NCBI RefSeq assembly: GCF_032854445.1
Contig: NC_088295.1
Span: 28,628,498-28,692,497 of the forward strand
Direction: 5' to 3'
DNA from: Liolophura sinensis
Taxonomy: Eukaryota
DNA length: 64,000 bases
Both the position numbers and the translations under genes were made by a program. This document shows, in pieces, positions 24,801 through 60,374 of this stretch (the stretch's first letter is position 1; each line of letters starts with the position of its first letter). The notes under the pieces are model-generated. The model had not been told where the DNA came from. It did no database searches and saw nothing but the letters and a program-made list of their open reading frames with translations.

Positions 24801-24803
<3 letters not shown>

Positions 24804-24894: not shown

Positions 24895-24897
<3 letters not shown>

Positions 24898-32310: not shown

Positions 32311-32344
32311 TATGCATGGTCGCACGTGTGAACTTACCTTTCAC

Positions 32345-34520: not shown

Positions 34521-35950
34521 TGAGGGTCAGGCAGTCTAATGCTTGTCCACGTTAAAATTGCCTTCGACGTTTAACGGTGTTTGATTCGAGTTATATAGAA
34601 CAAGGTAACCTGGCGTGGTTGGGCCGGCCCGTGTGGACTGTGGTTTACATACACACACAGACAGACAACTTGAGTGCCGGGCACGACTAGTATGAACAAA
34701 ATGACAGGGACGTCCAGTAAGTGTCTTTTAACATTTCGTACCTGTTTCCTTTTCCAGGTCCGCAAAGTTGTCCTGTTCCCCAATGACAAACAGTTTCGTG
34801 TCATCACCGCGTAAGAGATGTCAAAGATGTCACGGTGTATCCACTGCCATTAAGTTTGCTACAGGCCTTGTAACTAGGCTCTCGTCCAGGCTATAGCTAC
34901 ACGTACGGGTTACAAAAGCGCAATGACAGTGAGCATAATAAATCACTGGTGTACTCTATTGAAAGAATCCGCTATAAACTCAAACTGTCTACAGCTAACT
35001 AGTCTTAGGTGTTGATTTTATGGAGTCCACAACAAGCCTTCTCTTTTGTTACATCTGGCTCACGTCTGGAGAATGATCGCGTTTTAACAGCCACATAAAA
35101 CCCCTTTAAGATGGTTGAACAAATTGTCACCCCTTCCTAAACATTTATTTAGTTTTATTTACGACGTTAGGCCACGCTTGTAGGTTTACCTTAAGGCGTT
35201 TTCAGTCCGGGCTGAAGGCGAAGAACTTGCACTGGGTGAATATACAGAGGCTGTACGATGTAGCAAAACACTCCTGCCAAAGAACAATTTTATTTCTAAC
35301 AGAATACATTACATAGAAGCTAGTTTAGCAATTTTTGAGTCAATTACACTTTTTTATGAAGTAATGTTATACTGTTTGAGTCAACAGAAGCTTTTTACAG
35401 ATTGATTGTTACACTTTCTGAGTCTCCTACGAATCATTATCAGAATTTTTCAGTCCGTAGCATGCAGATCTTTGAAGAAGCATCAATGCACATTTGAATT
35501 CATTGACTGAATGTTTATTTAACGTCATACTAAAAAAATGAATCAGTTTCACTTTTCCTAAGAACTGTTACCAGAGCTCAGTTCACAAATGGCGGTGTAA
35601 GGTGTAACCCAGACACCAGAGCACTAGAATACTTCCGTCTAAATAATGAAATAATGTCCGAAACGAGGTTCTTTTTGCAGAATGGGTCAATTAATAGGAA
35701 AAACTTTTTCTGAAACTTTCAGTATATACGTAGTTAGATTAAATCCACAATCCACAATCAGATTATACATACCTTATAGTTCAAACGTAAAAACGAATTT
35801 ACTAAAGAAGGTTGACTGAAAAATCTATATTTTTTAACCACATATTATTTCAACTAGACGATAAAAATACAGGTAAAAGAATATCTTTGATTTTTGATCT
35901 TAGGAAAGAAGAGTAATTCCCAGAATATACAATTTTCTCTCAGCACAGAC

Positions 35951-35952
<2 letters not shown>

Positions 35953-36029
<77 letters not shown>
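35953..36029. repeat. (TA)n microsatellite
   Basis: Perfect run. Confidence 0.97.
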
Positions 36030-36032
<3 letters not shown>

Positions 36033-39000
36033 TAAAGTTTAAATATTAAAATAATTGCAATACCTACATCTGGCAAAAACTTGTAGTTTAATTTTACTAT
36101 ACTTGTATTTGTAAATTTCAGCTAATAATGTGTATTATTTTAAAGATCAACTCTCATAAATCCGCTCACATTACATATACTCACTGCACCTAATGAGTGA
36201 ATAATGATACCGGTGCATATATACAACGAGTGGTCGCGCGACGGGTTGGTATACGGAGTGAAAATAATTCTGCATGATTAATTAAACACTTTCATGTTAG
36301 TTTTTTTTCAAATTTGTTTTTGATGTGTATTTTTTTGTCTTGGTTTTATTTCTTGGGCTATTTGTTTTTTCACTTTAAAGCGTTTACTGAGCAAAGTTGT
36401 AAAGTTGGTGACAGGTTAAATCGCGTGTCCAGAAGGTGTTGATCGACCGGGGTTTCATTAAGGCGATAAATAAATGAGTAGGAAGATCAGAACGTCGGAA
36501 CGGGGAGACAGGCCGGGCCGGAGCCTGTATACCAGCTCGTTTGGGACAACTTTTTATTCCCATCGCTTCCGCGTTCACAAATTAGTTACCCGCTGGAAAA
36601 GGTGTGAATTATTAATGCACAGCGGTGATAGTATCGCCGTCCAGCAACAGCAAATTTCCTTGTTGACGACAAAAGATATTTCCAAGTGAATTTGATGGGA
36701 GTTGAAGACTCTTGGATGTGCTATAGTCCGCCTTCTTGAACGATTGAGGTAGTTTGGACTGAGCGCAGCCGCAAAGAGGCCATAAGATGGATTCCTCTAT
36801 TAACCGACAGCACAATCAGCTCATCCGTCCTTGTTCTAAGTTCGGGTGAGAAACGAATCAATTGATGGGGGACGATTGTTAAGTTTGGACCCGCCACAGC
36901 CTCGCTACACAGTCTCTCCAGAGACTTCCGGACTTAACACAGATTAATAGCCTGTAATAAGAAAGAATAGGGATTAATTTCTAGAGTAGTTCCAATTAAG
37001 CCATCAGACTTAAACCAGACGTGGAGAGCGAAATGGTAGAAAGACACGAACAAACCAATCACACGTCTGCTCACAGTAGTTATATGTTGGAACAATAAAA
37101 AGCTCACTTGATATTCGTGCGGAGAGGACAGGGAATCGTTAAAAAACCAAACTATTAAAGAAAGGACAATAAAAACTAAAGGGAAAAAAACGAACGAACA
37201 AACAAACAATAAATGGAACGTAATAAAAGATTTACAGTGTAGAGACCTACCACCTATTATGGACATTCATGACACAACAGTTTTGTGTTTATATTAAACG
37301 TTTTCATGATTTTTCCGGATTAAAATTTGTACATTTACATAAGGTTCCCTTTAGAAATATTTTTTTCGTTGAGATTTTCGTTTCCATTGCATAGTTTTAA
37401 GATATGTAGTACGGTATTTGCATAATTCAATGTCATGACGGACGACAACCGTACGTGCCGGAAAGCTATACAATATAAATTGAAATATGACATCATGCTG
37501 TAAAAGTATGATATATTATTAATAAAATACTTATTCATTACGTAGAATTCACACATTGTATTTGCACAGTCATTTACCACCGTTTGTAGATATCTATCCG
37601 GTCTGTTCTAAGCGCAGGCCCAGCTAACATATACACCTCATGACGCCATTCATTCGTCATGTGTATATGTGTATTATATATGTTTGTGACAGTTGTGCTA
37701 TATGTTATATATACCGATTTTATTTTTTAATTACGTTTTTATAAAATTAATTTTTTACGGTGGGTGTGTCCATCCCATGCTGCCTTGTAAGATTTATCAT
37801 TTATTTTTGAGGACTGTATAATGAAACAAATTTTGAAAGGAAAAGATTTTCTTCCCAAACCCGAAATTACATTTCAGTGTATAACCCGATATTTTATACA
37901 AAACTTCTTTAGTGTGCTCCACTAGTTTATCATGTAAACTAAAAATAGAAAGTACCCATATAATTAACATAAATCTATAAGTAGATGAATTTAAATAATT
38001 ACCTGTTGATGATAAATACACAAACAATGTAGGTTTCGCAACTGATTATTTGATCACAATGTAAATCGTTGCATATTCAGTTTTAAACATTTTTGCTGTG
38101 GTGTGTACAGATGTAGCATGCATCCGAATCAGCTGGCGAGACCTTATTTGTGATTTAAATGTGTTGCAAAACTATTCTAAACAGGTGGAATCTTTATCCT
38201 TTCAATTATGTGTTTTAACAAACAAAAACGTTAAGTAAAAAAAAAACGTTCAAAGTCAGAGTTTTTCTTTGGTTGACGTTAACCGTGGATCTCCATGCCA
38301 AACCTCTGTCTGAGGTGACAAAGTCGTGTGCTTTTGTACCTTTTATTTTGAAGAGTTCCGATTTAGGATAGAGGAGGCGATCTTAAGTCAATGTGTATCG
38401 ACAGAAGCTCCGACAGTCCCCATCCGCCCTCTGTAGTTACAGCCCCAGCTCTGGGGGATTTACTTTTCACAACTCTTGTATACATGTTCAGAAAATTTCC
38501 AGCAAATTAGCGCAAAATTTCACCCAGGTCCGAATCACTACATCACCATATTTTTTGACAATAAATTTTAAAATGCTTAAATGTTATAATTTCCAAAACT
38601 TGAACCTTGGAGCAAGCAGTTTGGTTTGGGTTTATTTGAGTGGGTGTACATATGTTTTCTCTTGGCACCGTACCATGAAGGTCAGCGGAAGGGCTTTAAG
38701 GCGCGTGAAGATGAACTGAAGTTGAGAAGTGTCTGTATAAACGTGTCGGGAAATGTGACAGGTTCCGTGCTGAAGACTCAGGGGTCGAGGGAGCTGCCGT
38801 CAAGCCGACCCGAGTCCTCGGCACACACGGGCGCCCAGCAGATTGAGGAACCATCAAGGCAACAGAAACGGGATTTGTTGTCAAAAGCCTTTAGACGAAT
38901 CCCTCATATCTTATCGCCACGGTCCTTATGTCAGATAGTGCTTTTCTCAACCCCCTTTTCTCCCGCCCCAAAACTCATCTCCGTATCCCGGGAAAAGTCC

Positions 39001-42000
39001 GGAATTTTTATGATCCGTTTCAAAGCCCTGCAGAATTTCTTCTTTCTCGATATTATTGGAGTCAGAAAAATCCGAAAGTGGATTCACGTTGGACTATGGG
39101 TTTTCAAAGACATAATCACAATATATGTTAAGGGAATGAAGCTGTCTTTGCAAATATAGGGCATAAAAATTTATTTTACATCACACCTGTCCTATATCAC
39201 AAATGGCGTAATAAAACTCAAAGTGATACAAAGTAATATGGGAAGATTTAAAGTTAATGCATTCGTCCTTTGGATTTATCACAGAACTGGAGTTAGATAA
39301 TAATAATATATGAGGAGTGATGTTTTTATGAGTTGTGACACACGTACAGAACCGAAGGAAATATTCATAAAATAAAAATATAAAATTGATTTTAAAAATA
39401 CGTTTTTAAAAATATGAAACACTCTTTGTGAAATAAAAAACAACCAATGAAGAAAAGGTGTGATGTACATAGAACTGTCATTGCCAACATTTTAATGTAT
39501 ATATATAGTATGATGATAATATAGTTGTTTTGAGGTCATCGAGGTGAGCACTGCCTTATGTAAAAATAATGATACATGGATAATATTTGATCCTGCATAA
39601 GGGTATAATTAAACGTCTAAAATCAATAGGTCTGTCCCCTGGGTGGACGTGGTCCTATGAAGACATGAGCAGCCTGGGACACTTGTCTTACTGGCGGGCA
39701 GGTGAAGGATTCCTGTCATCACTGTAACCTTAGGGTTATGTCACTGTAGAACGTGGGGCCGAGAAAAACGAGACACCTTTAAAAGCCGGGTAGATTTGTA
39801 GATATTAGAGGAGGGTTTAGGCCAGATCTGGAGCCAGCACTCTGGTTAAACACATGTGAGATGGGATCTGGTCGGATTGGCAACTCGTATGTTGAATTCT
39901 TCTTCACTTTTAGCGTTGGCCATAAAGCCCCTGTCGAGAAGAGCGGTTGGAAGATAACGTCAACAAAAGACCGTTTGCCCTTCTTAAGAGCATTCTTCTC
40001 ACCCAACTAGAGTCAGAAATAAATACATAAAAAGTCGAGAAAGTCTATAGAGGTTTAGCGATTTTCACCGTGAGTGGCTGCCCCAAACTGTACGGTGTGG
40101 GCTGTGCAGGCCCGGGCAGTGGGCAGAAGACAAAAGAAGAGCAGGGTTAACCGAAAGGCCTGCCCCCGAACATGCGATTTGTGATACACGGGCTTTCACA
40201 GGCATCAAAGCCTAATCCCCTCCCAGCCAAAAAAGTGTCTACGACATTTTAAAATGCATAACTGTAAAGGAAATAGAGCAAGCATACAAATATTGCAAAT
40301 CTCAGTCCAAACACGTGATTCCCGATACTTAAAGATGACATAGCTGAGGGCTTTTCGAGGCTTATATTAGACATGGGTTTTAAGTCCATTTCCACTTATT
40401 TTAACACTTTCTTTCTAAGTATATGATTTAATTCTCTCCTAAAGTGTTATTTTAATACCTCACATTGACTTTTTCAAGATGAACTTGTCTCGTTCGATAA
40501 ATTCATCTGCTAAAATGCACCTCCTTTAAAAAACAAGATAAGAGGGTCTGATCAAGGGTTCCATGTTTGCTCTAGAATTCTCTTTATCTCTTATTGTAGA
40601 CGGGTTTGGAATACATCGGTGGCGACTTAAGGAACTTTTCGCTTTGAAGTGTTTTGGCACAAGAAAGTCAGTGTACCCAATATTAACTGAACCGAAAAAA
40701 CCGAGCTCCTCCGCTATTCTTGGACTGTGAAATATAGCTAAATCAACTGCGACGAATCCATACAGATTTTAACACCTTGGACATTTTTTGTTTCTGCGCA
40801 CGGTTCAGTTATCTGTGGCACGAAAATCTCCAAAGCCGTTCCCCAGTAATTTTCGATATTTCTGGCCGCTAAGGCAGAGCTGAGGGAGGGAAGACTTAAT
40901 CTCATACCAGTATCCTCGTCATCCTTCAGACAATCGCTTCTCAAACGTGTTGACGTTTGTTTTTACCGTTGACGGTCATCTGTGAGCGTTTACTCGTCAG
41001 CTATAGTGAGAAGACGTCAAACTATTCCCTCGACTTTGTGTCACTGTTATCGAGTTCCCTTTCTCCTCGACTCAATCCCTAACAGGAGCCAATTTGTTGG
41101 GCAACCGGCCATAATCAAGAAAGGAAATGTCAAGAAAAGTGAACCTTATGTTAAGAATTTTTCCATTTTGCATGCAAAGCTGCGATTCCTTCCCATGAGA
41201 GTTCTCTGGTCACGGGAGGTAAATAAGGTAGATGTGCCAGATGCACGGCTGGCGCAGCTCTCTGTCAATACATCTTTATGAGTTAATTTGAAAACAAGGA
41301 CCCTCCTCGTCTTCATTTGCTCTTTCTGATCAAAGTCCCATAAACAGCGACCGTCGTAACAAGACTTTTATTCATTTCTCCATTTGTATCCAAATTTGTT
41401 TTTTGTGACGCTTGATTTGTTTGTAGGCACAAACTTGGGCCGCTTTCAGTGGGATTATAAGAGAGCACAAATCCACGTCGACCCTTGTCTCAATATTTGA
41501 ATGGGCGAGAGATGTCAACCGACTGAGTTTACATTAGAAATTAGATGCCCGTGGAAATCGGGGAAAATATTAGCGCCGATCGTGGGTTTACGGGGGAAAT
41601 GTGCACAGTCTCGAGGAAATAGATCAATGGCTAAGGGTTTGGAAGTGTAGCAAAAGGACGCTTTACCACAGTCCTCCTTTTCTCTTATCTTTGACTTTGT
41701 GGACACAACTGATTGGTCAGAGTGTACCTGGCTAAACACCGTCGTTTGACCAGCGACAGGGTCAAATTCTAGCGCCGTGTGCTCCGAGACCACCGGCTAG
41801 TGAGATGCGAAAGAACATTACAGAATTGACGGACTGTTTTTTTGTTTATGCTAGATCCATAAAGATAGCGTCGACTCTGCCCTCGACCCTACAGTTTCAT
41901 ATTTGTCTCCCCCGCTGGAAAAATCCAAAGTCAAATTGGTGGTATGTCGTCTGCGGGCCTGAGGCGCGGGAATCCCACCTTATCCCGTCCGTCCCTTAAA

Positions 42001-43168
42001 AAGACCATTGTTCAAGCCTGTGGGAAAGTCAGACATTAAGAGAAACTCTCGGAATTAGTGAGATTTGAACGAGAACAGCGGGTACGGTCAAACCACCGCT
42101 CCAGCATAATAACTTCTCAGTCACAATTAGTGTAACAACTTTGTGAGGCGTTCAGCAAGTTTATTCGGGTGTCATGGGGCATGGATAGCGTCCCTAGATA
42201 CAGTGTCTTGTGTGCAGAGAGATATTCCCTAATCATTAGGCCGAGGCCCGGATTCGCACGACCGGACAACACGGAGAAGTTTACTGTATAATCGGAGATT
42301 TACACCCATTGCCTAGTCAAAGGATATTGAAAGACTGTCACATCACGACCCGTAATTGTACAGATCGCTCCTTCAATACAGACTGTTCACAACTTCTATT
42401 GATGGCACTTCAACAAGTGTCGCTCACATGCGGACTTGCCCACACTACCATATTTGGAAGACCCTAGAAGTGATCCATCAGTCCCCCATTAAATAACTGG
42501 CTTGCGAGGGCTTAATATCAGGAAGTGTTAAGTTGGAATTCAAGTTAGGTTTTTCGTCACCGCCTCTCTCGCAAAGCAGACCTGCCACCATCCGCCAGAA
42601 ATGTTCATTTCCTTCGCTTATTATTAATTCACAAGTCTTTGGAGAATCGTTCACCCACGATGCCACAGGCCTTTCTTATATAAAAAAAAAATCCCCAAAA
42701 GAAGACAACGGTGTCTCTAGCGAGTTTGAAGTCGATGTTCATGGACTAACGGTTCCTAGCGGGACATAAGCGTGATACTTCAGCTAGGAACAATGGGCGC
42801 CATTGGTCCATCGGATTACGTCAGTCAGTGAAAACCCCCTCGTGTTGGCCTCTTGGATTTGGACAGCCGCCCGTGACAATAGAGCTAAGGAACAGCAGAG
42901 GTCAGCCTTTGTCCAGGAGCCCTCTATAATTACTACTGTTGCGTAATTTTGGTCAAATAAGCCGCATAGATCGGCTGGCAGTGTTTTGTCCCAAGAAGGA
43001 TTTCCAGCGGTTTTAGGTCTTTAACAAACAGCTAACACAACTGGGTCCAGGAGTCATTTACTGCTTGTGGTCACTTTATCTAGTGTCATTTTGATCATTA
43101 GGACTTGACCACAAGCTGGCGAAGGACTTTCTCACCTATTTTATGACCTCTTAACTCGTCTCTTCAGC

Positions 43169-43184
43169 ATGGACTATAAGAAAA
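43169..43184 (+). CDS. NR2E1: NR2E1 (tailless/TLX nuclear receptor) coding exon 1: ATG GAC TAT AAG AAA A | gtaagt (MDYKK + first base of Ser)
   Basis: A true ATG followed by a consensus GTAAGT donor. Splicing to exon 2 gives [17 protein letters not shown], parallel to human TLX MSKPAGSTS-RILDIPCKVC. Start codon choice is the least certain part. Confidence 0.6.
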
Positions 43185-44004
43185 GTAAGTGGATATTGAC
43201 AGCTCAGTGTCAATTAGCCATTTCAGTATTTCTGTTCGACCATAATTACCAGCGTGCCTCGTCTTGTGTAGGAAGAGTCAAGTGCAGAGTCGGTTGTATA
43301 CCAATTCCACAGATGTTTTATCATTCCCCACGATTAACATGCGGAGTGCTTTGCATAACTTCACAGCATGTATCAGATGCTTGGACTGACTTGTTCTTGT
43401 AATTTTTTTTTTTGGACAGGACCTTATATTTTATTGAAAAATGGTACAGGCTAATTTTCTGTTTTAACCCTCCAAACTAAGTGTACCTCGGGTAAGATGA
43501 TAGTAGCTTAGGGTGAAAATCCTATGCTCATATATGCATGCTCACTTGTACTTTTCGATTTATAATCGTGTTATAGGTAATTTAGGATTTATATTATCTC
43601 TCAATTGCCTGCATACTGTTATCACAAATACCTATTAGTTAGTATACACTTCCGTTATATTTAGATGCGTTACTGAATTTGGACGAGAACTGTGTGTTAA
43701 TTATTCGAAATCGTTTTAGATGTAAACTTTTTTTCATGATGTATTCTTCCTGTTTTTGTTATGAAGAAAATCTTACTTGAGCGAAATTTGGCAAGGCCTA
43801 AGAGCTCATGTTATACACTTAACCATTACATATAATTAATTTGATGTGTGTTACGTACCATGTTTGGAGTTCAGAACCTTCGTGAGTCCAGTTTATTTAC
43901 TTTTTCCCTCTTTACTGGATGCACCCCGCTATTCACAGTAAGTGACACAGGCCCACAAAGATGTAAAATTTGGATTTACATCATTTTATTTCCTTTCTTC
44001 ATAG

Positions 44005-44086
44005 GTCGAATACTCGTTGACGTCCCGTGTAAGGTGTGCCAAGACCATTCATCAGGGAAACATTACGGGATTTATGCATGTGATGG
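44005..44086 (+). CDS. NR2E1: NR2E1 coding exon 2 ([27 protein letters not shown]; first half of zinc finger I)
   Basis: Acceptor tttcttcatag|GT and donor GG|gtaagt. The nuclear-receptor C4 zinc-finger signature CxxC...GxHYGxxxCxGC is present. Confidence 0.85.
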
Positions 44087-45243
44087 GTAAGTTATCCATT
44101 TTTTCGTTAATTTTATTATTTATTTATTTACGTGTGTGATAATGCTACAGCAGTAAAAGTTAAACAGAAGATGAAAATAGTGATGCGTCAGTGAGTAAGC
44201 CAGTGAAACAAAGTTCATTACAATAAAATCATTATTTAATCTTGTCTGATATCAACCGTGTGGGAATGCTTTGGAATATGCCTGAATACTTCAAGCATAT
44301 AAAGCTTGGTATTTAGGTTTTAGTAAAAGCATTTGAAAAATGTATGATTTCCACGAAATATGATAGACAGGTACATGCAATTTCACGCCATCAGATGTTT
44401 TATTTAACGACAAGAATTCCAAACAACCCGATGATTTTAAGGCTGGTTGTTTGTGATGACTATATTTTGGCTTTTGACTTTTGGGATCTGAGGTTTTTGT
44501 TAATGCCAGAGTTTTCAATTAAATTAATTAAATTAAGTTATTAATTAGCCATTATGAACTATCTTGGTATCAAGTTTCGTTGCCCTGGCGACAGTATAAA
44601 CTTCTGGTAATTCATTAGTGGACACACGACGTGTCTGGTTTCTGACAGTTGGCGCTTGGTTAAATATTTTATCTAAAACTTAACAGTAACTTTTCGCTTT
44701 ACTTTGGAATGGGAAAAGGAGGAGCAATGGTTAAAAAATAACACGAGTCAGCCGTGAAATTCCTGACGTTAAAGCTTGGTTTCAGTGCAATGCAATGTGG
44801 AGCATAATATAGAGATGAAACTTTAGACGGGTGATTTTGTCCGTTGTGTAGATATGTTTGGGATGGTGATGCTAGGCTCTATTGTGCTGGCACGCAGGGT
44901 GCGGGCTTCCCGCTATCCTAGGGCCATCTACGGCAACCCGACACTCGTTCAGCCGGCCTATGTATACATACGTCTGTACCTGTATCTACTCGTAACTTTG
45001 TTGATACTTCGGAAATATTTACACATAGTTACAAAAGGTGCTGAGAAGCCTACTGACATGAATTTAGGCCTATAGGTCCAAATCTGTGCCACGAAAGTCC
45101 CTTTTACTTTCCTCCCAATCCGTTTCCATTAGGTTTTCTCCCTAAAAGTGTCTCTGATCTTTCACCATCTGGCTAGGGTGGACCAATGTTGTCTTGCAAA
45201 TCCACAAAAGTTCATGCCGTTTTTTCTCTTTCTTAACTTGCAG

Positions 45244-45262
45244 GTGCGCTGGATTCTTCAAG
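45244..45262 (+). CDS. NR2E1: NR2E1 coding micro-exon 3 (19 bp: G TGC GCT GGA TTC TTC AAG = (G)CAGFFK, P-box)
   Basis: Acceptor cttgcag|G and donor AAG|gtgagt. It completes Gly from exon 2 (GG+G) and restores frame into exon 4 (RSIRRNR). Without it the DBD would lack the CxGFFKR P-box. Confidence 0.8.
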
Positions 45263-48200
45263 GTGAGTACATGATTTAATTTTAACCTATCTGACTTTCT
45301 TATAGACTGGGTCTTGAGCAAACAGCACCTGTACTTCTCACGACACCAGGCATCTCATTAAGCCCCTCCACTAGGAGCTGCCGTTGACTTCTGTTTACTT
45401 TCTCACTTACATACTTACTTACTTACTCTCTTGGTTTACATTCTAGTCTAACTCTCAAAGCTCTCCGCAAACTATGTTAAGAGTGACGTCTCAGCCAGTT
45501 GATTTATCACCCAAAGTCACCCTTCCATGGCCGTAATTGGCCAGTAGATGTTTGTTCCAAATTTCCTTTTCTGCACTTAAAAAAACATTTCTTTTGTTTT
45601 ATTTGTCACAACAGAATATAACACAATTGTTCTTATTATTTATGGTTGCATGCATATTTCTACTGAGATCCGTAAAGCACCCTCTCTCATCTGCATGAGC
45701 ATCTGACTATTGAAAATAGTTATTGAAAGATGATTGCGTAGTGGGATAAAAAAAGAAGTTATCAAAGCCTACAGAAACAAATAGAATGTCACAAACTGAT
45801 TCAAAATCCTCTTCAGTTTCTGATGGCTTGTTGTTTAGTGGAGTGGTATACAGTTTTATTTTTGTTTTAGTTTTATAAAACGGGGTTAATATATATAGCT
45901 GATGGTGGATTATTTGGTGTATGTATTAATTTATTTAGAGTGTTAGGATATAAATAGTCTGGGTTTTCTAATTTCCAGATATGCACAGCATTTTAACTCT
46001 ATATACTATAGATAGCAAATTTTCATGTAGGCTTTTTTTTCAGGAAACAAAAACCGAAATTCACACATGTTATTTTAGGTAGCCAATTCATCATTCAGGG
46101 ATTTACATGTTATAAAGTTTATTTCATCAATATATTATCTGGTAAAAAAGACAAAATGTATAAACAAGGTTTAGGAATGTACCAGAATAAGCAAGGCTGT
46201 ATTCTTCTGAACAGCAGCTTTTCAAACATTAGCCATACCAGGCCACATTCAATATTCGAAATTGTAGTTTGCTTGCAGTAAGTATAGGTAAAATTTGGGG
46301 AAATATAGGCCTATATTTGTCATCAAAACATAATTAATAAAGAATGGTGATAAACAGTGTGTTTTGTACAACTGATAGATTAACGGTATTACCGTATTAA
46401 CATGAACAGCTTTGACAGGGCATTTGGGTGGTATGGGAATCCGGCTTCCTGGAGAGCATGTAGCTCACTGCGAGGAGAGAAGTGGCTTTGTAATTGTCTG
46501 TAATTGATTCATTACAGCCTATGGATAAAATTGCCTTCACGTGTTTTTAGAGGCACGCAATTACTGTGTTTTGGACTTGTGTAGTAGTTTAGTCCTAACT
46601 TTTCCGAGGTTATCGTGTGTGAAGTTGACGTATAATCATGCCTAGTTTGCACGGCGGTCAGCCATGTTGCATTGTGAGTCAGATTGTCGGTAATTTTTGA
46701 CATTTCCCAAAGCCTGTTGCTCGTCCCACGATTCGTGCTGTCAGAGTGCCACTGACACGGAAATTGTCTCTGCACTTACTCATTTTACACATGATGGTTC
46801 AATTTCTGTGTGTGTATACGACTATTTATTTATCAGAGACATTTCACGTCATTTTATTAGGCGTTGGCAGAGTTTACTATATATCACAGGCTAATCTGAT
46901 GTAGTCAGCATCATTACCCGTGTATTTGTTAAACAGCATCGCTGTTGTTACAGGCCCTTCAGGAGAAGTGCTAAACAAGTCAGGTCTTTTGCTGACATCT
47001 AATTTTGCTCGAACGACCAGCGCTTTTACTCCAGCTAATATATTCATCCAATAATAACTCAATCAAGCTAAATATCACCATTCGTCTATATATTTTAATT
47101 GAACACTTATTATTTAGTTTGCGCAATAATTTATTACAAGTTATCCATAATCAAGATGACCTGAGAAGTTATCATATTCCTTAGTCGCCCCAATTTGCGA
47201 TGCCCTGGGTGTAAAATCGGCAGAATTGTTCCTAGTTTTAATTCCTACATTTTCTTTTCTGAGCTGGGAAAGATTTTGGTTATCTGTTTTAGTTACTCGC
47301 GGTGTCATTGGTGTCCATTTGTGGCTCACATTGACCTTTACAAGAGGTTAGCATCGCATTCAGTTTATTCTTAGAAGGATAGTAAATGTTGAACACCATG
47401 ACTGGGCAAACTCTCTCTTCAACAGCCTGCTCAATTGAACTGCAACTTTGATTCATCGAAGTTTAATTAGCGCGAATTGGAGGAGGATGGACAGGAGACC
47501 GGACGTGACTTAGAAATCCTGACCTTTGTCACCGGAAACAAATGAATGATCTTGTTAAAACACGCGAACACGATCAACTGAAGAGTCGGCACGGAGCGAG
47601 GTGCCTCTGTGAATTCCCCCCACCAGCTCGCCGTGTCGGGGTAAACCTCGAAATACGGGAAAGGAGATTTGCCTTTCTACGTAACCCGGGGGAGAAATTC
47701 GAGGGCTACTGTTGACTTGAGGATGAATTTTGTGTAAACGCATGTTTGTAGAAACAATAGCTTCTTAGCTGCGCAACTCGAGACTTAGTCGGTTACCTGG
47801 TCTGCACATCACACCTGAGGCGTGTAAGATCAAAGCGAACGATGCCGCCATATCGTGTTCAGGTGAGAGGTGATACCCTCCCACTGTGTTAGAGCCAGGA
47901 GAAAGCACTGTTAACGGGGGCATCTTACCCTCACAAGATCGCTCCGGTCTGACAGAACATAAGCCAAGCTAAGGTCGGAGTTAAAACTTTACACAAACTT
48001 TAGTGAGTTCCTCAAAACGTCCATGTAAATCTGGGCCTCTTGGGTGTGTAAATACCAAAGCGACTCGATTGTACACCTGGGCACGTCCTCGCTTTCTCTA
48101 GCCACCATCCGCATACAAATTATAGATTTTCAATATTTTTCCTCGATTAGATTGGCAAAGTCAGTTTTATAGGACACATAAAACTGATCCCTAAAACGTG

Positions 48201-49566
48201 TCTCCGTGAGAGATTGTCTCATTAACTTTAACACCAAAAGTCAAGAGATCCGGATTCTTTAAACTCCCGAACGAGGAAATTTTAGTAGAGAGGTGTAGTC
48301 AAACCTGTTGTCACGCTACAAAAGGCGGATCTCACTGACCATCTCAGCTCCCGTATGCAGGGACGCTTTCTTTTTATTTGTTTTATTTGTTTTTTATTTC
48401 GTGGCATCGATGTACAGTTCATGTTCAGCAAGTGCAAGTTATCATTCACACAAATTTATTCATACAGAAAGATGCATAATGACATCATCGCGATAACTCT
48501 CTGTGTTAATAAAAATCATGGTGAGAGTTCAATTCAGGAACATGTCATGTTTTTTTTTCGTCATATGAAAACAGTTATGTTGCCTGAAGAGTTCTCCACG
48601 GCTATATGCACGACAAAGCCTTGGTTGTCTTTTGTTAGTTTATAAACTACATGGGACAGCACTGAGGGTAAATTATTCGGTCGATGTGAATTATTTTGTG
48701 ACTATGACTTTTGTGAGAATAACAATAGGTTTACCGAGTCAATAATTTAGGCCATATATTAAGATGCTCGATCGTCTGGATAAATAAGAATTAGTGCCAC
48801 GTCGACAATGTTTCTGCCATATTTTTGGCAACATAACCTATAGCCCTTTGAGTAATTTCCATACACACTTTCGCTGAGGAATTCTGAATTGTGTAAGTCA
48901 GAGTAGGCCTGTACAGTAATAAAAACAGTCGTCAATGGCTGAAATTGCCATTCACTTCGAAATCAAATCATCTGCTTGCTCTGTCTTAATAATAATAGGT
49001 CTCGTTAAATAAAGCATGGCATAAACCCTTGGCTCGGATGATGTCCAAAGCACTTGATATTTTTGGTACGAATAATTTGTAGAAATCAAGATATTATTAA
49101 ATCCAAAGTTCACCTCAACAGATGATTTGTTTTTTCACCCGAAGAAAAAAGAACTGGGCAGTTAAATCACCAAATTTTTGTGGACGGCGCAGTTTTATAG
49201 CAAGTTCTAATCTGTTTAAAACTCTTAAAATTTTTGCCTTTACACACTGTACGCGACGAACACTTATTCACGTGACCGCATGAATTTTCTAGAGATAAAA
49301 ACCTTAGCCTTTGTAGACCTTGTTTTCCAAATATACCTCATGTGGTGAAACTCCAGCAGACTGAACAAATGAGCAAGTTGATAAAGTCTTCCGGGGGCTG
49401 TTTGTCTTTAATTATTTGTGTTTATTTATTGTCAGATCTATCCCCCTTTTTTCAACATTTCAGAGTCAAAAGGCATTAATTGTTTTCTTAATATTCAAGA
49501 GAAGCGGTTGAAAAACACGACATATGGACAATTTTTAGCAGCTGCCTGTTGGTGTTATCTTTGCAG

Positions 49567-49702
49567 AGATCTATCAGGAGAAACCGACAATACATATGTA
49601 AGGCCCGTGGTCAAGGGGCGTGTCCTGTTGACAAGACGCACCGGAACCAGTGCCGGGCATGTCGGCTGACCAAATGTCTGGAGGCGGGAATGAACAAAGA
49701 CG
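49567..49702 (+). CDS. NR2E1: NR2E1 coding exon 4 ([45 protein letters not shown]; zinc finger II with the 7-residue D-box typical of tailless/TLX)
   Basis: Acceptor ctttgcag|AGA and donor GAC G|gtaggt. Near-identical to tll/[15 protein letters not shown](K)KC(L/F)E(V)GMNKD. Confidence 0.92.
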
Positions 49703-52700
49703 GTAGGTTTTTTTTATCTCAGTTTGTTGAACAATCCCCATGGGCCAGATTTCGATGAAAGCTGTTTCACCAGTCACCTTTGGGCTCGAGAGCCATGGTT
49801 CCGTCACAAAATAACTATGAAATGTCCCAGCTTTACTGATTGGAGATGCGCCATGGGCTGGTTCCTTGGCTTGAACCTACACTGGTCACAAGTCACTGAT
49901 CAAATCTCCGCTCGCCTTTTTACCTTTTTGGCTTTACGTTGATGCCTATCGCGACCATTGTCTGCCGTCTCGCCTGATGCAGTCTTCTCCTCGCTGACTA
50001 GTGTCATGTTCAGTTTTCCGCCTATATTTTGATGGAAGTTGGTGTTCATTGATGCAAACGTGTGATTTTGTGGCGTCCTGACAAGTTTGTCTTTACTATA
50101 TGTGATATCAAATTTCTGGGAGCAAAATTTGTACAATCAAAGTTGAATTTGCTACTTATCTCATATATCAAAACTTTTAATAATATGTCGGTAAAATCAT
50201 ATTTTGTGGAGAAAAAGCTGTAATTTTATAGCGTTATTTACGTTTGTTTGAGTTTGAAATATAAAATATATGCGTTCGTATATAAGAAGTGATGTTAAAA
50301 TAATGCAATGCCTAATAAACGTTGTATATTAATTATACCCCATGATACCACGTTCTAAACAATGACTGTTTTGATTTAAGCTATACGTAGTAATTCACGA
50401 ATGATTTGATTCAAGCCTCATTTAGCCATTCGCCAATGTTCACCAAGTTCTGAAAACAATTATGTGGGCATAAGATCAAGGAAAAATTGTTTATTTATCC
50501 CCACAATATGTTGTTAACATTTATGTGAAGCGATTGGATTTCGTAATGACGGGTTGGCTTTCACACTAAAGCGCCGCCGTGAAAGACACGAAATTTCTTG
50601 AGCCGATTGGAAAATTAGTATAATTCAGCTTAATTGTCACTAATGTTATCAGCTGGTCTGGCCACACGCTATTGTGTTTGACTTTGGCGACCTTGGCAGT
50701 GTTAGCGTTGCTGAAGCGGACACAAATCGTCGGCTCAACAAGAAGCCACTCAAGGGAACAAAGTGTTATGATGAGCCAGAAAAAACAAGCAACAAACACT
50801 GAATATGAATATTACATCAATTTGCGGTATCCCGTGGATCGATAGGGCCCTTTGTGGCTAGAATTAGTGTAATATCCCCACCCGTTAACGGATTGCCACG
50901 GCGAAGTCGTGGCGGGAGCAGTCGGGGTTAGGTTTAGACAATTGTGTTCCTTAGCAGGTTCTTCTCCTTTTCTGTGTTGTTTGTTCCCGATCGTCGGTGT
51001 TCCAGGATACGAAGAGAAGCTATCAGTTACAGACATTACCTCGAAGAAAAGCCCTGGCTCAACGGAAATATCACTGGCATTAGATTCGCTTTGAATAGGA
51101 AAATCATGTTAGATTCCAGCCCTTTTCATCAAGTTAATGAAGGTGTTGATTGCGGTTTTCCGTCATTGATCGCTCCGTTTCTCAACCGCTTCTGTGCTTG
51201 CTAAAGTCCCCAGATTGCTCATCTTGTCTCCTTCAATGAAGTGTCATGGTGCAGATAGCATTTAAAACCCAACTAGGAAATAAACGCACGTGCCAGCTGC
51301 ACGAGACCAAAGTAAGGGCCATTGAATGACGATCGATTTTTTCTCCTCTCGTTGGCCGGTCTTTTGGTCAGAGGAAATACGAAACGTGTCTGGGCGGATT
51401 TTTTGGCAGGGGAAGGGCGCCAAGCCTGAATGGCTACAAGAGTTTTCCCAGTATCGCGCTGCGATTTGCCGAGTGCCAAGCCAGATCAACCATTGATACT
51501 TTTACTAACCCGTTTATTATTGCGTCTGTATCAAATGTTCATCTTAATTTTCGATTTTGTTTACCGCGATGAACGACCGCTGTTGAGAAGTCTGTCGAGG
51601 CAGCGTTCGGAGACTTAGGGTGCTGAGCGAAGTCCCTCGGCCGAGTACTCTTACTGACAACTGTTTAATTTGAATATCTCTCTCAATCAAATCTCATTTA
51701 TTTGGCGTACAAATCTCACTAAGTAAAATATCTTTTTTTAACCTAAGAGGGCAGTCAATAAAGTTTCTTTACGTCGGCGCTTGTTGGCTTTGTGTTGTCC
51801 ATAGACAAGATTGGCTTGCTACACGTGCAGTCTCAAGACCGCCTTTACGCAGCTTTCATCAAGTGCTGGGAATGTCACGACTGAAGAAAAAAAACCGTCA
51901 GCTTTTTGACTGGCAAATCCTTCTTAAAAGGAACTTGCACGTAGATAAGTGTGTGATATACATAGCCAATTGAGCACCTGGAGACGTTAGTGCAATTATC
52001 TCACCGCACGGTTTTAATCTATGTCTTATCCGAAACACACCGGCTCTTTTAGACACATTTATTCTACTGTGTGAACTTTCTTATTGCTGTTTGTTACATC
52101 TTTTCTGCGCGGCCCATCTTCAAGGAGCTGCATGGGAGATTTTCTGTACTCTCCATAACTTGGTTGTGCGAGTTTATCTTCAGTAAGATCCTTAAGCAAA
52201 TAAGCGAAATCCCCGGTAAAGAAGTTTAGACACTGAGAAAACTTCGCATGGCATGTGAATTGAGGCCTTGGCAAACAGCACAGTGTGATCAGCGCCACCA
52301 CACTCTCGTTAACATTTGTACCTTACGCCACTGGAGAGTTCACACGTTTTAATTCCTCACAAATCTCCCTACACTCTAGTTGATAGAAATCAGTTGCATT
52401 TTTATCGGAGTTTGAATTTCAAAATCGTATCGCATTTCAACCTGCCTCAAAGACAATACTCCTGTCAATATTAGGAATTGCGCGAATGTCTAAAGAAGTG
52501 TGCTTTCGGCTTTAAGACGTATTTCATTTTTTTCTTTTCGACACACAAGTGCCGCATACTCCGGACTGGGGGAGGTAAAAAGTAGTGTCTCTCGGATCTT
52601 CAAAACTTCCTTTCAAGATGCACTCTGAATATCTCCTGTGTCCAAAACAGAGATGAAAAATGACCGATAACAATTTATTCGACGGTGATATCTTTAAAAA

Positions 52701-54870
52701 TGACGAGCGCACTAAATCCCTCTCAACCTAGTTCAGTAGATTTCTGGTAGACGTGGGGAAATTGGTGGAAGAAAAACGTCTTTAATTGGAACGGAAGGCA
52801 AAAGCTAAAGGTGACTCTGTGGAAACATGACATTTTGATTTATCTGAAACTCGACCTGATCGACATGCCTCTAGAAAAGGGTCTACAGCTCAAACCTCTG
52901 GCTACCATTCATAGATTCATGCGCCTTGTTGGCCCACATTTCGTCCGCCATGCTGACTTTGCTCGCTCGGACAACAGCTCGTATGCAAACTTTTGCCTTC
53001 GTTGTTTCGCTTTTCTTTAACTTTCACGGAACGGCACGGGGACTTATAAAGATGTTTCCTTTCGTTGACCTTCCCTGGCCTAGGAGATGGGAGAGTTGTA
53101 AACGGTCGCCCTCTCCCTCTAACTCTTCTTTTGTCTGACCAGGGTGTTTTGGTTAGCTCTCTAGCCTTCTTCCCGTGCCGTAGCACAGCTGCGCAAACAG
53201 GTCGAATAATATACAGAATCTCCTCCTACTTTGCCTATTGTGGTATATACCACACGGGCAGAACGCGCGGCGTGCTAGAGTATTCACTTCTCTAACGTTG
53301 ATATACAAGGCGAGTGTTGAACTCAGTTTTCCTAAAGTTGAGACTTTTGTACCCAAGGCTGTACCAGCGTGAGGTGTTTCAATATAGAACCCTCTCTCAA
53401 TTCTGACTGCTTGCGATTTCTAACCGCGACCTTTATAAAATAAGTAACCACTGTTCACACAGAATTTGTATGCGGAACAATAGGTGATTTTGGGTGACAA
53501 AAAGAATATCCTAAAGTAATCAGGTGGCGGCAGATGGAGTGGTCTTCACAGCAAGATTACATACTCATTCGACAGACAAAAAACTAATGTAAGAAAAACA
53601 ATTCGGATAAGTCTATTATCAAAAATTCTGAACGTTTAAAACGAAAACAAAAGGCAAATGGATTTCTCTGCATCGTGTCTTTTGCAGACCTATATTTTAC
53701 ATACTAAATTTTAGTGCTTCGTTCGAAGATATACTTCTCTCCATTTTTGTGTAATAGCAACACTGGAAATTGTTCATTTGTGGAATGGATTTAGATTGTC
53801 CAGTAGGTTGAGTCACTCACCGGAAGTTCGTGACGGCACGTTCACTCTACATTGCTAAGAATTAATAACCAAACTTTTTTTTATAAGCCAATATTCTCGG
53901 GTTTGACAACGCTTGTCTCGATTTGACGTGTGCTTGGAAGTTAATTGAACTAGACACTGGCTTCACTTATCAATTTATTTTCTTGTTTCGGGTCACATCG
54001 GGTCGTGTGGCATTCAGCAAGGCAGTCTCCTTCAGGTGGGCCTCTTTCCAGTTTTCACTGGCTCCGAGGGCACTCTGATTATCTGTGTCGATTAAGGTGA
54101 CTGCTGTGCCCGTGTAACTAGCCGATCTCTATTTGTTATCCAATGTTGGTAATGTGCAGGTCACTGAACCGACTAAGATCCACTTTATACAAGAGCAATG
54201 GAAGGCGAAGTGCCGGGTTTTCGCTTATTAAATTAAAAATGTGTGTCTGATTTAGCCTCTCGCAAGAGCACACAGCGCCAAATGTTTCCCCGGCGAGCAG
54301 CGTTTAGACTTCCTAATTAAAGAGCGTACGACAGCAGTCAACCCGTGCCTATGGATCAATATCGCTGGGGGATTGGAGTGGCATCTTGGCCGCCGTGGTA
54401 ATGCCATCAGCGTGACAGGCCACCGATGGGGCAGTTTATATTAACCGCTCCTTCCTCATGTCTGTCTTTGATGGAATACACACCCAATTTAGAATCGTTT
54501 ACAACATGTTACGTAATAATTAATATTACCGACATATCATTTTTCATTTTGCATAGATTACTCTGGATAGTCTATGTCTTCTACATGATAAACGTTTACG
54601 CCAGCCTGAAATACCTAAGATGAATTAACAACACATATTTTATGCTAATACTCGAAACCATACATGGCCAAGGCTTATCACTGTGTCTCTATAACTGTAA
54701 ACGATACTTACGAACGTTTGTCAAAGAAGCCACTTGTATAAAAAGCTTATGAGAATAATTTTTAAAAAAGCAATTACAAAAGAGTTATTTTTTGGTGAGT
54801 GATCATGTGAGTCAAATCAAACGACTCAAGATGAGGTTTTAATATTTCTTGATTCTGCATTTCGTTTCAG

Positions 54871-55100
54871 CTGTGCAGCATGAACGTGGTCCGAGGAACT
54901 CCACAATTAGGCGACAAGTGGCCATGTACTTGAAGGAAGCCAGCGAGTTGCCGTCCGTCCTGGCTCACTCCCCATTCAGACCCGCTTTTTTCCCCGGATT
55001 AGTGAGCCTGGATCACGTCACCCCTAATGACGGCATCACTGTCTCCGCTGTGGATCACGGTTCGATCCCTGGATCTGTGCTGTGTCAACCAACACCAAAA
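54871..55100 (+). CDS. NR2E1: NR2E1 coding exon 5 (AVQHERGPRNSTIRRQVAMYLKE...QPTPK; T-box and hinge)
   Basis: Acceptor tcgtttcag|CT completes G+CT = Ala. AVQHERGPR(N/T)ST(I/L)R(R/K)QVA(M/L)Y is diagnostic of tailless/TLX. Donor AAA|gtaagt. Confidence 0.92.
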
Positions 55101-55483
55101 GTAAGTCAGCTGAGGGAATTATTTTTAGTCCCACTGGAATCAATTGAATTTACACTCTAATCGAGGCGAATTTGTGTGTATTCACATTAATGAAACTATC
55201 GCTATCACTATGCCCTTTGAAGACTAGCTCTGTACCATATCTGTATGAGTACGATGTGCGTATTGTGGTTGTCTTGTTTGTTAATTTTAAAAAAAGTGAT
55301 AACGTGTTTTTTCTTGTAAAAATATATGAAGGGTAGTTTGTGCGAACCATAAACTTTTTGATGAAACCAGGAAGGGAAATGAGGATGAAAATGTCCAAAT
55401 GTTGACTTAATACATTCAATCGTCTATTAAGTTAATTTTTCTCCGATTAATGATAATTTGTATCTGTTTTGCTTTACCCCCAG

Positions 55484-55715
55484 TACCCACACGAACTCTC
55501 TCCGACATATTACAACAACCCCGAGGCTATTTGTGAAGCGGCTGCCAGACTTTTGTTCATGAGTGTAAAATGGGCGAAGAATGTTCCCGCGTTTCTCAGC
55601 TTGCCGTTCCGGGATCAGGTCCTACTTTTGGAGGAGGGCTGGCGGGAATTGTTTGTCCTTGGTGCCGCGCAGTTTCAGATGCCTATTGAAGCCGGACCCC
55701 TCCTCTCGGCTGCGG
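55484..55715 (+). CDS. NR2E1: NR2E1 coding exon 6 ([78 protein letters not shown]; start of the LBD)
   Basis: Acceptor ccccag|TAC and donor GCG G|gtgagt. Aligns with [41 protein letters not shown]. Confidence 0.92.
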
Positions 55716-56248
55716 GTGAGTTAGCTGGTCCAATAACTGGATCAGAAAGTTCATTTCATTACCTTCTTAATCATGCATTTTGGTGGTTTTGGGCTGTCTC
55801 ATAATCACCCAGCATAACGAGCGTGAATCCACATAGCTCTATTATATGATCGATTGAGATTTTTCTGGGGGTACTATGATTGACAGGTAAAACTACCGAT
55901 GAAATGGTTTAGTTCTGAGTGAACTGGGTTCATTTTGATAGAATTGCAACAGGCTGGAAAACCTTTGGCTCTGGACAAAGCTCAATTCCGGACGTTACAA
56001 ATATCCAGGCGTGCACGTTTAAGTTCTCAATGCTCACCAAGTGCCAACTCATCCTCTGGATTCGGTAAACAAACAAAAATCTTGGAAAACTTGTGAAGAG
56101 GTTTTGATATCACTGACTTGAATGACCTTTCCCAGACAAATCAGTTAGGGTGAGAATATTGGGAAACGATCCCGTGGCACATAATCAAAACCTAACAAGT
56201 TGTCTGTTGGAGCGGAAATATTAATATATGATCACATTGTGTTGTCAG

Positions 56249-56398
56249 GTATAAGCAGCGAGCACTCACCGGCGGAGAAAGTGGTGAGCATCATGAGCCA
56301 GATCAGGGCACTTCAGGAAATCATCGGTAAATTTAAAGCCCTTCAGGTAGACCCCACGGAGTACGCATGCCTCAAAGGAATCGTCATATTTAAAACAG
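56249..56398 (+). CDS. NR2E1: NR2E1 coding exon 7 (GISSEHSPAEKVVSIMSQIRALQEIIGKFKALQVDPTEYACLKGIVIFKT)
   Basis: Acceptor gttgtcag|GT (G+GT = Gly) and donor ACA G|gtgtgt. Aligns with TLX ISEIQALQEVVARFRQLRLDATEFACLKCIVTFK. Confidence 0.9.
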
Positions 56399-56784
56399 GT
56401 GTGTGACGAGGCATGAATAATGTAAAGTGTTAACAATTGTGAAAGAAACAACACAAATGATGTAAGATATGTTTAGACATGATTTTGCTTGACATCTAGT
56501 AAACTATGTTAGGAAAACATTAAACAATGTTAAAATAAGAATGACATAATGATAATTTGGATTTTATCACCTTTGTTAATTATATACATAATGAGTGACT
56601 TTTAAATTGACAAGAAGCTGTATTTCACTGGTTACGTGTGACAGTTTGCCAGTTTGCACATTACCGTCGATGCTCTGGTTTGTCTCTCTGTGCTGTACGT
56701 CTTAATTATATCATAATTATTTCATATTATATGTATTCAGTATTGACTGCTGCATCTCCAACTTCTTTCCTCTTTTTGTTTCAG

Positions 56785-57056
56785 CTTTTGCGGGCTCGTC
56801 AGCCTCGGAGATGAAGACATTACGGGACTTTCACTCAGTGGCAAGCCTTCAGGATCAAGCCCAGCTCACCCTCAGCAAATTCATCCAGACATCTTATCCG
56901 ACACAGCCCTTCCGGTTTGGCAAACTTCTTCTGCTTTTGCCCAATTTGCGGGCGGTCTCCGGCAGCACGATAGAGGAACTCTTCTTTCGGAAAACAATAG
57001 GGAGCATCCCCATTGAGAGACTTTTAGTGGATATGTTTAAATCCAGTGACTTTTAA
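56785..57056 (+). CDS. NR2E1: NR2E1 terminal coding exon 8 (AFAGSSASEMKTLRDFHSVASLQDQAQLTLSKFIQTSYPTQPFRFGKLLLLLPNLRAVSGSTIEELFFRKTIGSIPIERLLVDMFKSSDF*)
   Basis: Acceptor ttgtttcag|CT (G+CT = Ala). AF-2 and C-terminus nearly identical to TLX (LQDEAQLTL..YPTQP.RFGKLLLLLPALR..S.STIEE.FFKKTIG..PI.RLL.DMYKSSDI). TAA stop at 57054-57056. Confidence 0.93.
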
Positions 57057-59127: not shown

Positions 59128-59519
<392 letters not shown>

Positions 59520-60034
59520 TTTTGGAAAGAAAGTGTATGTAGTTAAGTCATATCTACAGAGCGACATTTATTTGGTGTTTCAAGCTATAATGTGTTCTGT
59601 AGGAAATGAAATGAGCAGTTATGCAGAGTTGCCTTTCTCAAATTCCAGAACTGACCATAAAATCTGAACCATAAGTTATAGGTATAGTATACAACCAAGC
59701 ACACACTACCACCCAAATCTAAATGAGGCAGTGTGTGTATTTGATTTGCTTGCGTAAGAAGCTTGACATTCACGAATGAATATTTGCAAAGGTTGACAGG
59801 TAAAACCGCTGGGCAAAATAAAGCGCCGTATCAATACCACATAATCCTGTATCTTGACACTTGGTCATGTGAGTTAAATCACGTGATTTGATCAGCTAGG
59901 CACCGTCACGAGTTGATAATTCCGCACACACAAAACCATCCACTTACTAACTGCTGTCATAGATTCACCTGACATTGAGATAATAGTCTCACTAAGGACA
60001 AGTATTCAAGTAGAAAACGTAACTATATATATAT

Positions 60035-60060
60035 ATATATTTGCTTATTTGGTAACATGG

Positions 60061-60134
<74 letters not shown>

Positions 60135-60374
60135 GTGTTAAATGGTTTCCCTTTGCAAACATTCGGCCATATTGTAATTCAAAAATAATAAAAAACTAAA
60201 ATTTTAAAAACTAATTGTGCTAACACTGAAATGTACAAGAATGAATAGTAGTCCTCTAATAATTCCACAGTGCCAAGTGCAACGAAACCAGCAATGTTCT
60301 CAGTTTCATTAATTTTCCATTTCTTCAGTTGAAGCGAAATGGTCTAATTAAGAAACATTAGAACAGCACTTAAG
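60035..60374. repeat. Right arm of the inverted repeat (inner 29 bp + (TA)n 60064-60130 + 244 bp)
   Basis: See the left arm. The two arms flank a unique core of about 510 bp (59520-60034). Confidence 0.92.

Follow-up and report, generated by a model that had tools for sequence, protein, structure and literature searches.

The tailless/TLX (NR2E1) nuclear receptor locus of the chiton Liolophura sinensis and its 19-nt micro-exon

The gene model and its first coding exon

We analyzed a 64-kb stretch of the genome of the chiton Liolophura sinensis (hereafter the window), with coordinates given throughout as window positions on the + strand. At ~39% G+C, the window resembles the genomic DNA of an invertebrate. 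The published chiton assembly was released as L. japonica and then corrected to L. sinensis (PMC11068029, PMC12441733). A first-pass annotation of the window had described a complete tailless/TLX (NR2E1; tll/TLX below) orthologue of 378 aa within 43169-57056. Our results indicate that the locus is almost certainly a single-copy-type tailless/TLX gene with eight coding exons at 34692-57056 (+), encoding a 381-aa orphan nuclear receptor. Pfam domains, best matches, the set of diagnostic motifs and a neighbor-joining (NJ) tree all agree on this orthology. The earlier observation is real and its interpretation is right in essentials, with a correction needed to exon 1 and to the extent of the gene.

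A homology search identified the protein P0001, which is deposited at NCBI as 'nuclear receptor subfamily 2 group E member 1-like [Liolophura sinensis]' and is 381 aa long. An exact protein-to-genome splice mapper placed P0001 on the window at 100% identity with a single solution, although a sister species might have an identical protein. The resulting coding sequence comprises 381 codons in an intact open reading frame, every intron is GT-AG, and there are no frameshifts or stops. The tll/TLX gene and its 19-nt exon are already present in the NCBI annotation and are not new. The model is composed as follows:

34692-34716, +, exon 1: 25 nt; MNKMTGTS plus the first base of Ser; donor CCA/gtaagt, phase 1
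34717-44004, +, intron 1: 9288 nt, phase 1; holds the false 'exon 1' of the first-pass model at 43169-43184
44005-44086, +, exon 2: 82 nt; zinc-ligand cysteines 1-3 of finger 1 and P-box Cys-Asp(19)-Gly; ends with GG of Gly
45244-45262, +, exon 3 (micro-exon): 19 nt; third base of Gly, then C-A-G-F-F-K
49567-49702, +, exon 4: 136 nt; remainder of the recognition helix, the 7-residue D-box and zinc finger 2
54871-55100, +, exon 5: 230 nt; T-box AVQHERGPRNST and hinge
55484-55715, +, exon 6: 232 nt; start of the ligand-binding domain (LBD; helix H3 region)
56249-56398, +, exon 7: 150 nt; middle of the LBD
56785-57056, +, exon 8: 272 nt including the TAA stop; C-terminal LBD, H11-H12 loop and H12 (EELFFRKTIGSIPIERLLVDMFKSSDF)

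The GAT codon of Asp-19 is the last full codon of exon 2. Introns 3 and 4 are 4304 and 5168 nt long, the sizes that had been claimed, and candidate poly(A) signals occur at 57451, 58536, 58694 and 58993. When the eight exons of the first-pass model were re-derived, they joined in frame to 378 aa with GT-AG at all seven introns, and every quoted motif was found. Seven of these exons, the 19-nt exon included, equal the P0001 model base for base. The interval 43169-57056 does not hold a complete coding sequence because exon 1 lies at 34692-34716, so that the gene starts at 34692 and encodes 381 instead of 378 aa.

The two proteins differ solely at their N-termini, which read MNKMTGTSS-RILVDV in P0001 and MDYKKS-RILVDV in the earlier model. 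MNKMTGT is encoded at one site in the window, 34692 (ATGAACAAAATGACAGGGACGTCCA/gtaagt). Among the top 120 matches, the form MN[KR]xxGTSS directly before RIL is common to most lophotrochozoan orthologues, and related forms are found in Lingula, Saccoglossus (MNKTATTSS) and mammals (MSKPAGSTS), while the DYKK peptide occurs in none of these 120 homologues. In oyster, Lingula and a mammal, the first coding exon likewise has 25 nt and ends in phase 1. The phase-1 intron at S^RIL was found in nine of the ten tll/TLX orthologue loci that we mapped, Drosophila tll among them, the exception being a Glandiceps model with an atypical N-terminus (MFTG). The upstream exon 1 is credible because its peptide is conserved, DYKK is absent from homologues, and the 25-nt phase-1 exon recurs in other phyla.

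The alternative is that the MDYKK exon (43169-43184), which falls within intron 1, is the real first coding exon or an alternative one used from a promoter inside intron 1. This exon does have an ATG, a consensus gtaagt donor and a phase-1 end that joins in frame to exon 2, and orthologue models vary in their first exon (Patella 'MS', Owenia 'MAGVS', Glandiceps 'MFTG'). However, an ATG followed by four codons and GT (16 nt) easily arises by chance in a 9-kb intron, and the exon at 34692, which the NCBI model uses, encodes the peptide whose conservation extends from molluscs to brachiopods and hemichordates. We consider the MDYKK exon a distinctly improbable first exon. Three short motifs upstream of exon 1 were read from sequence:

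34363-34367, +: CCAAT
34503-34507: inverted CCAAT
34592-34597, +: TATATA, a putative core promoter ~95 nt upstream of the ATG

Together, the TATATA and the two CCAAT motifs possibly fit a promoter upstream of 34692.

Assignment to the NR2E1 family

A C4 double zinc-finger DNA-binding domain (DBD) followed by an LBD places the protein in the nuclear receptor superfamily. Pfam zf-C4 (PF00105) matched residues 13-83 of the 378-aa model at 4.6e-28 (97.9 bits, cut-off 21.1) and Hormone_recep (PF00104) matched at 1e-26 (94.2 bits, cut-off 23.5). The best solved structure was the LBD of human NR2E1, 4xaj (249.8 bits, E = 4.5e-73), with further matches to NR2E3 (202.4 bits, 4LOG), COUP-TF2 (191 bits) and Tribolium Tll (174.8 bits). 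We regard the LBD fold as settled because the sequence matches a solved TLX LBD at this E-value. Human/vertebrate TLX (4XAJ) has the same domain order as the chiton protein, with identities of ~60% overall, 83.5% in the DBD and 57% in the LBD, and vertebrate TLX also shares the 7-residue D-box length, the T-box AVQHERGPR and the C-terminal H12 motif.

NR2E1/tailless proteins, not NR2E3, FAX-1 or dsf, stood on top of the match list. Family-level names were carried by 91 of the top 120 matches, and all of these were NR2E1/tailless/tll except one, Argonauta P0013, which is auto-named 'photoreceptor-specific nuclear receptor-like' and has an NR2E1-type DBD. Saccoglossus tailless, Bugula tll and Lottia LOTGIDRAFT_130367 are among the named matches. 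Kaur et al. identified Lottia 130367 as LgTLX by phylogeny, beside separate mollusc DSF, FAX1, PNR and one further NR2E gene (PMC4388693). Named lophotrochozoan NR2E1 orthologues (Patella vulgata, Ostrea edulis, Argonauta hians, Lingula anatina, Owenia fusiformis and Lottia LgTLX) are 69-80% identical to the chiton protein over full length.

A profile-free search of 1.84 billion representatives returned 150 sequences, whose clade labels were taken via cluster names, and motif classes were tabulated over 268 homologues and representatives:

tll/TLX class: P-box CDGC[AS]G, D-box of 7 residues, T-box AVQHERGPR
dissatisfaction (dsf, NR2E4) class: P-box CDGCSG, D-box of 9 residues, T-box AVQHERGPR
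PNR class: P-box CNGCSG, D-box of 6 residues, T-box AVQNERQPR
unnamed group with scallop and Nematostella members: P-box CDGCRG, D-box of 5 residues, T-box ERAPR
COUP-TF class: P-box CEGCKS

The chiton protein carries the tll/TLX set, with P-box CDGCAG, D-box KARGQGA (7 residues) and T-box MNKDAVQHERGPR (AVQHERGPR). The NR2E P-box has been defined as C(D/N)GC(S/A)G, as opposed to CEGCKG; Asp-19 marks the NR2E1 subclass (tll/TLX/dsf/NHR-67) and favors AAGTCA, and the NR2E3 subclass has Asn-19 (DeMeo et al., PMC2225407). With CDGCAG and Asp-19, the chiton P-box belongs to the NR2E class and to its NR2E1 subclass. The first-pass annotation had set the P-box aside for family assignment on the ground that it reads CDGCAG and human TLX CDGCSG. 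This doubt is unfounded, since position 22 is Ala (CDGCAG) in all protostome tll/TLX proteins inspected, Drosophila tailless included, and Ser (CDGCSG) in all deuterostome orthologues inspected, vertebrate TLX among them. Because Asp-19 with Ala-22 lies within the NR2E1-type definition and is shared by Drosophila tailless, the P-box supports the assignment. Drosophila tailless (NR2E2; D. miranda P0144) further shares the 7-residue D-box, 86% DBD identity and the S^RIL intron with the chiton gene, but its LBD is far more diverged (40% identity) and only this first intron is left.

In NJ trees built with Kimura distances, bootstrap and trimmed columns, the chiton protein nested with lophotrochozoan NR2E1 proteins, and the tll/TLX bipartition received 76% bootstrap, a moderate value. 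Over the trimmed columns, its identity was 72-85% to the invertebrate orthologues nearest in the tree, 64% to mammalian TLX and at most 53% to dsf, PNR, the CDGCRG group and COUP-TF. We also considered that the gene could be another NR2E paralogue, of the NR2E3/PNR-FAX-1, dissatisfaction or CDGCRG type. All of these share the NR2E architecture, a repressor-type LBD and the C-terminus FFRKTIG...LL.DM[FY]K, PNR and dsf fall in the same P-box class C(D/N)GC(S/A)G as the chiton protein, and all NR2E members are ~48-53% identical to it over conserved columns. Automatic naming at NCBI is loose as well, as seen with Argonauta P0013 and with a CDGCRG-type scallop protein named 'NR2E1-like'. The chiton protein is nevertheless unlike PNR/FAX-1 (Asn-19, 6-residue D-box, AVQNERQPR), unlike dsf (9-residue D-box) and unlike the CDGCRG group (5-residue D-box, ERAPR), and its LBD scores 47 bits higher with human TLX than with PNR. 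The PNR, dsf and CDGCRG clades, each at 96-100% bootstrap, leave it out, and its gene has an exon structure identical to that seen in lophotrochozoan NR2E1 genes. Membership in another NR2E group is therefore very improbable. Less probable still is a pseudogene or a mis-assembled window, given the intact 381-codon frame over eight exons, the uniformly GT-AG introns, the lack of frameshifts or stops, and 79-85% identity over conserved columns to other lophotrochozoan orthologues.

Several points weigh against the reading of the locus as a single tll/TLX gene with the structure and function that we give it. Support for tll/TLX monophyly is moderate, comes from simple NJ, and is obtained with fast insect and vertebrate sequences on long branches. 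A second NR2E1-like chiton paralogue may lie outside the window searched, as in Mizuhopecten (P0008, P0031). The NCBI model is a computational prediction, so that agreement with it is no proof of the exon-1 choice; the main argument for that choice is that the encoded peptide and the 25-nt exon are conserved across phyla. In the Atro pocket, human TLX T373 is replaced by E369 in the chiton, and the functional statements made below for the chiton protein are all by homology.

The two NR2E1-like proteins of the scallop Mizuhopecten yessoensis, P0008 and P0031, are 76% and 67% identical to the chiton protein. For both, the recorded contig has one and the same length, 1,834,233 bp, and they may represent a linked, scallop-specific tll/TLX duplication.

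The 19-nt micro-exon and introns across species

The first-pass annotation had placed a separate 19-bp exon exactly at 45244-45262, and we found it there in agreement with the P0001 model. Its sequence is GTGCGCTGGATTCTTCAAG; it is entered in phase 2 and left in phase 0, between an acceptor ttttttctctttcttaacttgcag/G with an 80% pyrimidine tract and a perfect AAG/gtgagt donor. Being at most 30 nt long, flanked by canonical splice sites on both sides and frame-preserving, it has the properties of a micro-exon. It had been described as encoding the P-box GFFK. What the exon encodes is C-A-G-F-F-K. These residues supply zinc ligand 4 of finger 1 and P-box Ala-22 and begin the DNA-recognition helix; they thus include the second half of the P-box, and the Cys-Asp-Gly of the first half is on exon 2.

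The degenerate pattern AG-N-TGY-GCN-GGN-TTY-TTY-AAR-GT has one match in the 64-kb window and was found in 0 of 100 shuffles, which argues that the micro-exon is not a chance occurrence. Simulated skipping joined phase 2 to phase 0, giving a frameshift with a stop after 69 codons, and retention of intron 2 gave an immediate stop. Because of both outcomes, inclusion of the micro-exon is obligatory for a functional receptor.

We then mapped ten tll/TLX orthologue proteins and one Nematostella NR2E-type protein to their genomic loci with the same exact mapper. The DBD-region exons (lengths in nt) compare as follows:

Liolophura (chiton): 82/19/136; micro-exon present
Patella (gastropod): 82/19/136; micro-exon present at L003 3339-3357
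Argonauta (cephalopod): 82/19/136; micro-exon present at L006 32420-32438
Lingula (brachiopod): 82/19/139; micro-exon present at L005 4095-4113
Tachypleus (horseshoe crab): 82/19/142; micro-exon present at L008 14283-14301
Ostrea (bivalve): 101/136; CDG^C intron precisely lost
Owenia (annelid): 82/155; FFK^R intron precisely lost
Drosophila miranda (insect): single exon after S^RIL; both introns lost
Glandiceps (hemichordate): entire DBD in one exon; micro-exon absent
Strongylocentrotus (sea urchin): entire DBD in one exon; micro-exon absent
naked mole-rat (mammal): 146/88; a different intron, in the D-box
Nematostella (cnidarian), NR2E-type gene P0230 (L011): DBD in one exon; micro-exon absent; orthology uncertain

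The micro-exon is not special to the chiton genome, as four other protostomes examined have it. Exon lengths and phases of the chiton gene match those of lophotrochozoan and chelicerate orthologues exon for exon, the lophotrochozoan plan being 25/82/19/136/~230/232/150/~270 nt. The 82-nt exon 2 is identical in length in Patella, Lingula, Argonauta, Owenia and Tachypleus. Owenia has in addition gained a hinge intron. The 150-nt exon that corresponds to chiton exon 7 is present in eight of the ten loci (Ostrea, Patella, Owenia, Lingula, Tachypleus, Glandiceps, S. purpuratus and the mammal); its equivalent is 144 nt long in Argonauta, and Drosophila has lost the flanking introns. Mammalian TLX shares the introns at S^RIL, NKD^AVQ and PTPK^YP and the two flanking the 150-nt exon; it differs in being without the CDG^C and FFK^R introns, so that there is no micro-exon, and in having the D-box intron and two further LBD introns, for nine coding exons in total. 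The intron downstream of the micro-exon is 4.3 kb long in the chiton, compared with 0.2-1.1 kb in the other lophotrochozoan genes compared here.

Taken at the level of sequence, the 19-nt exon appears to be a constitutive micro-exon created by two old introns, a phase-2 intron at CDG^C and a phase-0 intron at FFK^R. Both introns and the exon are probably ancestral to protostomes instead of a chiton novelty. Presence of the micro-exon in the protostome ancestor is the most economical explanation because it is shared by chiton, limpet, octopod, brachiopod and horseshoe crab. A recent, lineage-specific and possibly transposon-derived insertion of intron 2 (44087-45243) had been suggested by the lack of the CDG^C intron in oyster and mammal and by 'GGT' at both junctions. 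This idea was ruled out by the identical position and phase of the intron in Patella, Lingula, Argonauta, Owenia and Tachypleus, and no repeat family was found overlapping intron 2. A pre-bilaterian origin of the micro-exon was also set aside, as the DBD of Nematostella P0230 is on one exon; this protein is divergent and not a clear tll orthologue, which makes it a weak negative.

Two further observations concern these introns. P0243, a dissatisfaction-type fragment of 509 aa, starts exactly at CSGFFKRSIHRN, which is the CDG^C boundary. This start hints that dsf genes may have an intron at the CDG^C position, which would date the intron before the tll/dsf split. Separately, in the mapped species the Ala/Ser split at P-box position 22 runs parallel to whether the DBD introns are present.

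In all five micro-exon species the donor is AAG/GTRAGT, a full consensus match, and the 30 nt before the acceptor are 70-87% pyrimidine. Recognition of the micro-exon probably relies on these strong splice signals. Such strength is expected where an exon is too short for ordinary exon definition. We asked whether the exon could instead be alternatively spliced as an on/off switch, with skipping producing a frameshifted mRNA targeted for nonsense-mediated decay. The premature stop after 69 codons would serve such a switch, at least five distantly related protostome lineages have retained it as a separate exon with an intron on each side, and exons this short are intrinsically hard to define. 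On the other hand, the near-optimal signals in all five species are what is expected for constitutive inclusion, and a separate micro-exon is dispensable because oyster and Owenia fused it to a neighbor and Drosophila removed both introns. We consider alternative splicing of this kind unlikely. It is equally doubtful that the exon has persisted for a function, with regulated inclusion and skipping acting as a frameshifting dose valve on a neural-progenitor repressor; the alternative to such functional persistence is that two old introns were neutrally retained.

It had been expected that exon-level predictors would miss the micro-exon. The NCBI model of the chiton gene contains it, but a few orthologue models seem to lack it: P0035 (Plakobranchus ocellatus), P0036 and P0259 are without CAGFFK or read into the intron after CDG. 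The 19-nt exon probably misled the annotation in these cases. We found no earlier description of a tll/NR2E1 micro-exon in the open-access literature searched, which is no proof that none exists.

Surroundings, proposed function and meaning

No recognizable coding sequence, tRNA or Rfam RNA was found in the 34.7 kb upstream of the ATG (1-34691) or in the 7 kb downstream of the stop. The sole open reading frame of at least 150 aa in the window had no Pfam match, nor did the ten longest open frames outside the TLX gene. A large gene-poor flank is typical beside developmental regulators. The flanks and intron 1 hold the following repeats:

6632-7079: tandem array, 32-nt unit, ~14 copies, upstream of the TLX start
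31248-31496: tandem array, 83-nt unit, 3 copies, upstream of the TLX start
32047-32334: tandem array, 48-nt unit, ~6 copies, upstream of the TLX start
32437-33264: tandem array, 26/52-nt unit, ~30 copies, upstream of the TLX start
59131-60372: near-perfect inverted repeat, arms of at most 192 nt that are 95-100% complementary; dinucleotide-type microsatellite, 2 kb downstream of the stop
1621-1748, 24758-24927 and 35886-36073: similar microsatellite tracts, the last one within intron 1

A dispersed repeat of ~200-240 nt is also present upstream in four copies that are 65-90% identical (14649-14890, 15350-15567, 19378-19615 and 27361-27539). From its sequence it looks like a short interspersed element (SINE) or a miniature inverted-repeat transposable element (MITE), and no tRNA (ARAGORN) or Rfam family was found at the four copies.

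By analogy with characterized family members, the DBD would bind AAGTCA half-sites as a monomer or homodimer. We infer this binding because the P-box is of the NR2E1 type with Asp-19 and Ala-22 (PMC2225407), and the DBD is 83.5% identical to mammalian TLX and 86% to fly Tll. The LBD is predicted to take a ligand-free 'autorepressed' fold with H12 in the coactivator groove, and H12 and H3 would form a recruiting pocket for corepressors of the Atrophin type. The human pocket binds the Atro box (ALXXLXXY) and is made up of H3, the H11-H12 loop and H12; in sequence, the chiton keeps five of its six contact residues (E182, A185, F189, F359 and L372). The main activity of the protein would then be to repress transcription during development of the anterior nervous system and the eye. 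Members of the tll/TLX family are expressed in anterior neuroectoderm, brain and eye. The sole mollusc expression datum that we found concerns Biomphalaria, in which BgTLX mRNA was detectable in embryos but not adults (PMC4388693). By comparison with flies and mice, we suggest that the chiton protein most likely represses transcription constitutively, by recruiting corepressors, while the nervous system and eye first develop.

As tll/TLX is a textbook developmental regulator that is present in every bilaterian examined, finding it here has little import beyond housekeeping. The practical results are a corrected first exon and gene extent and the demonstration that CDGCAG is a normal protostome tll P-box. 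A mildly new by-product is the cross-phylum intron map. It shows an 82/19/136-nt DBD pattern that molluscs, a brachiopod and a chelicerate share and that oyster, Owenia, Drosophila and the examined deuterostomes no longer show in part or in full. This map is of use for NR2E1 annotation, since a few deposited models lack the 19-nt exon, and the gene offers a tidy case of a conserved, apparently constitutive micro-exon.

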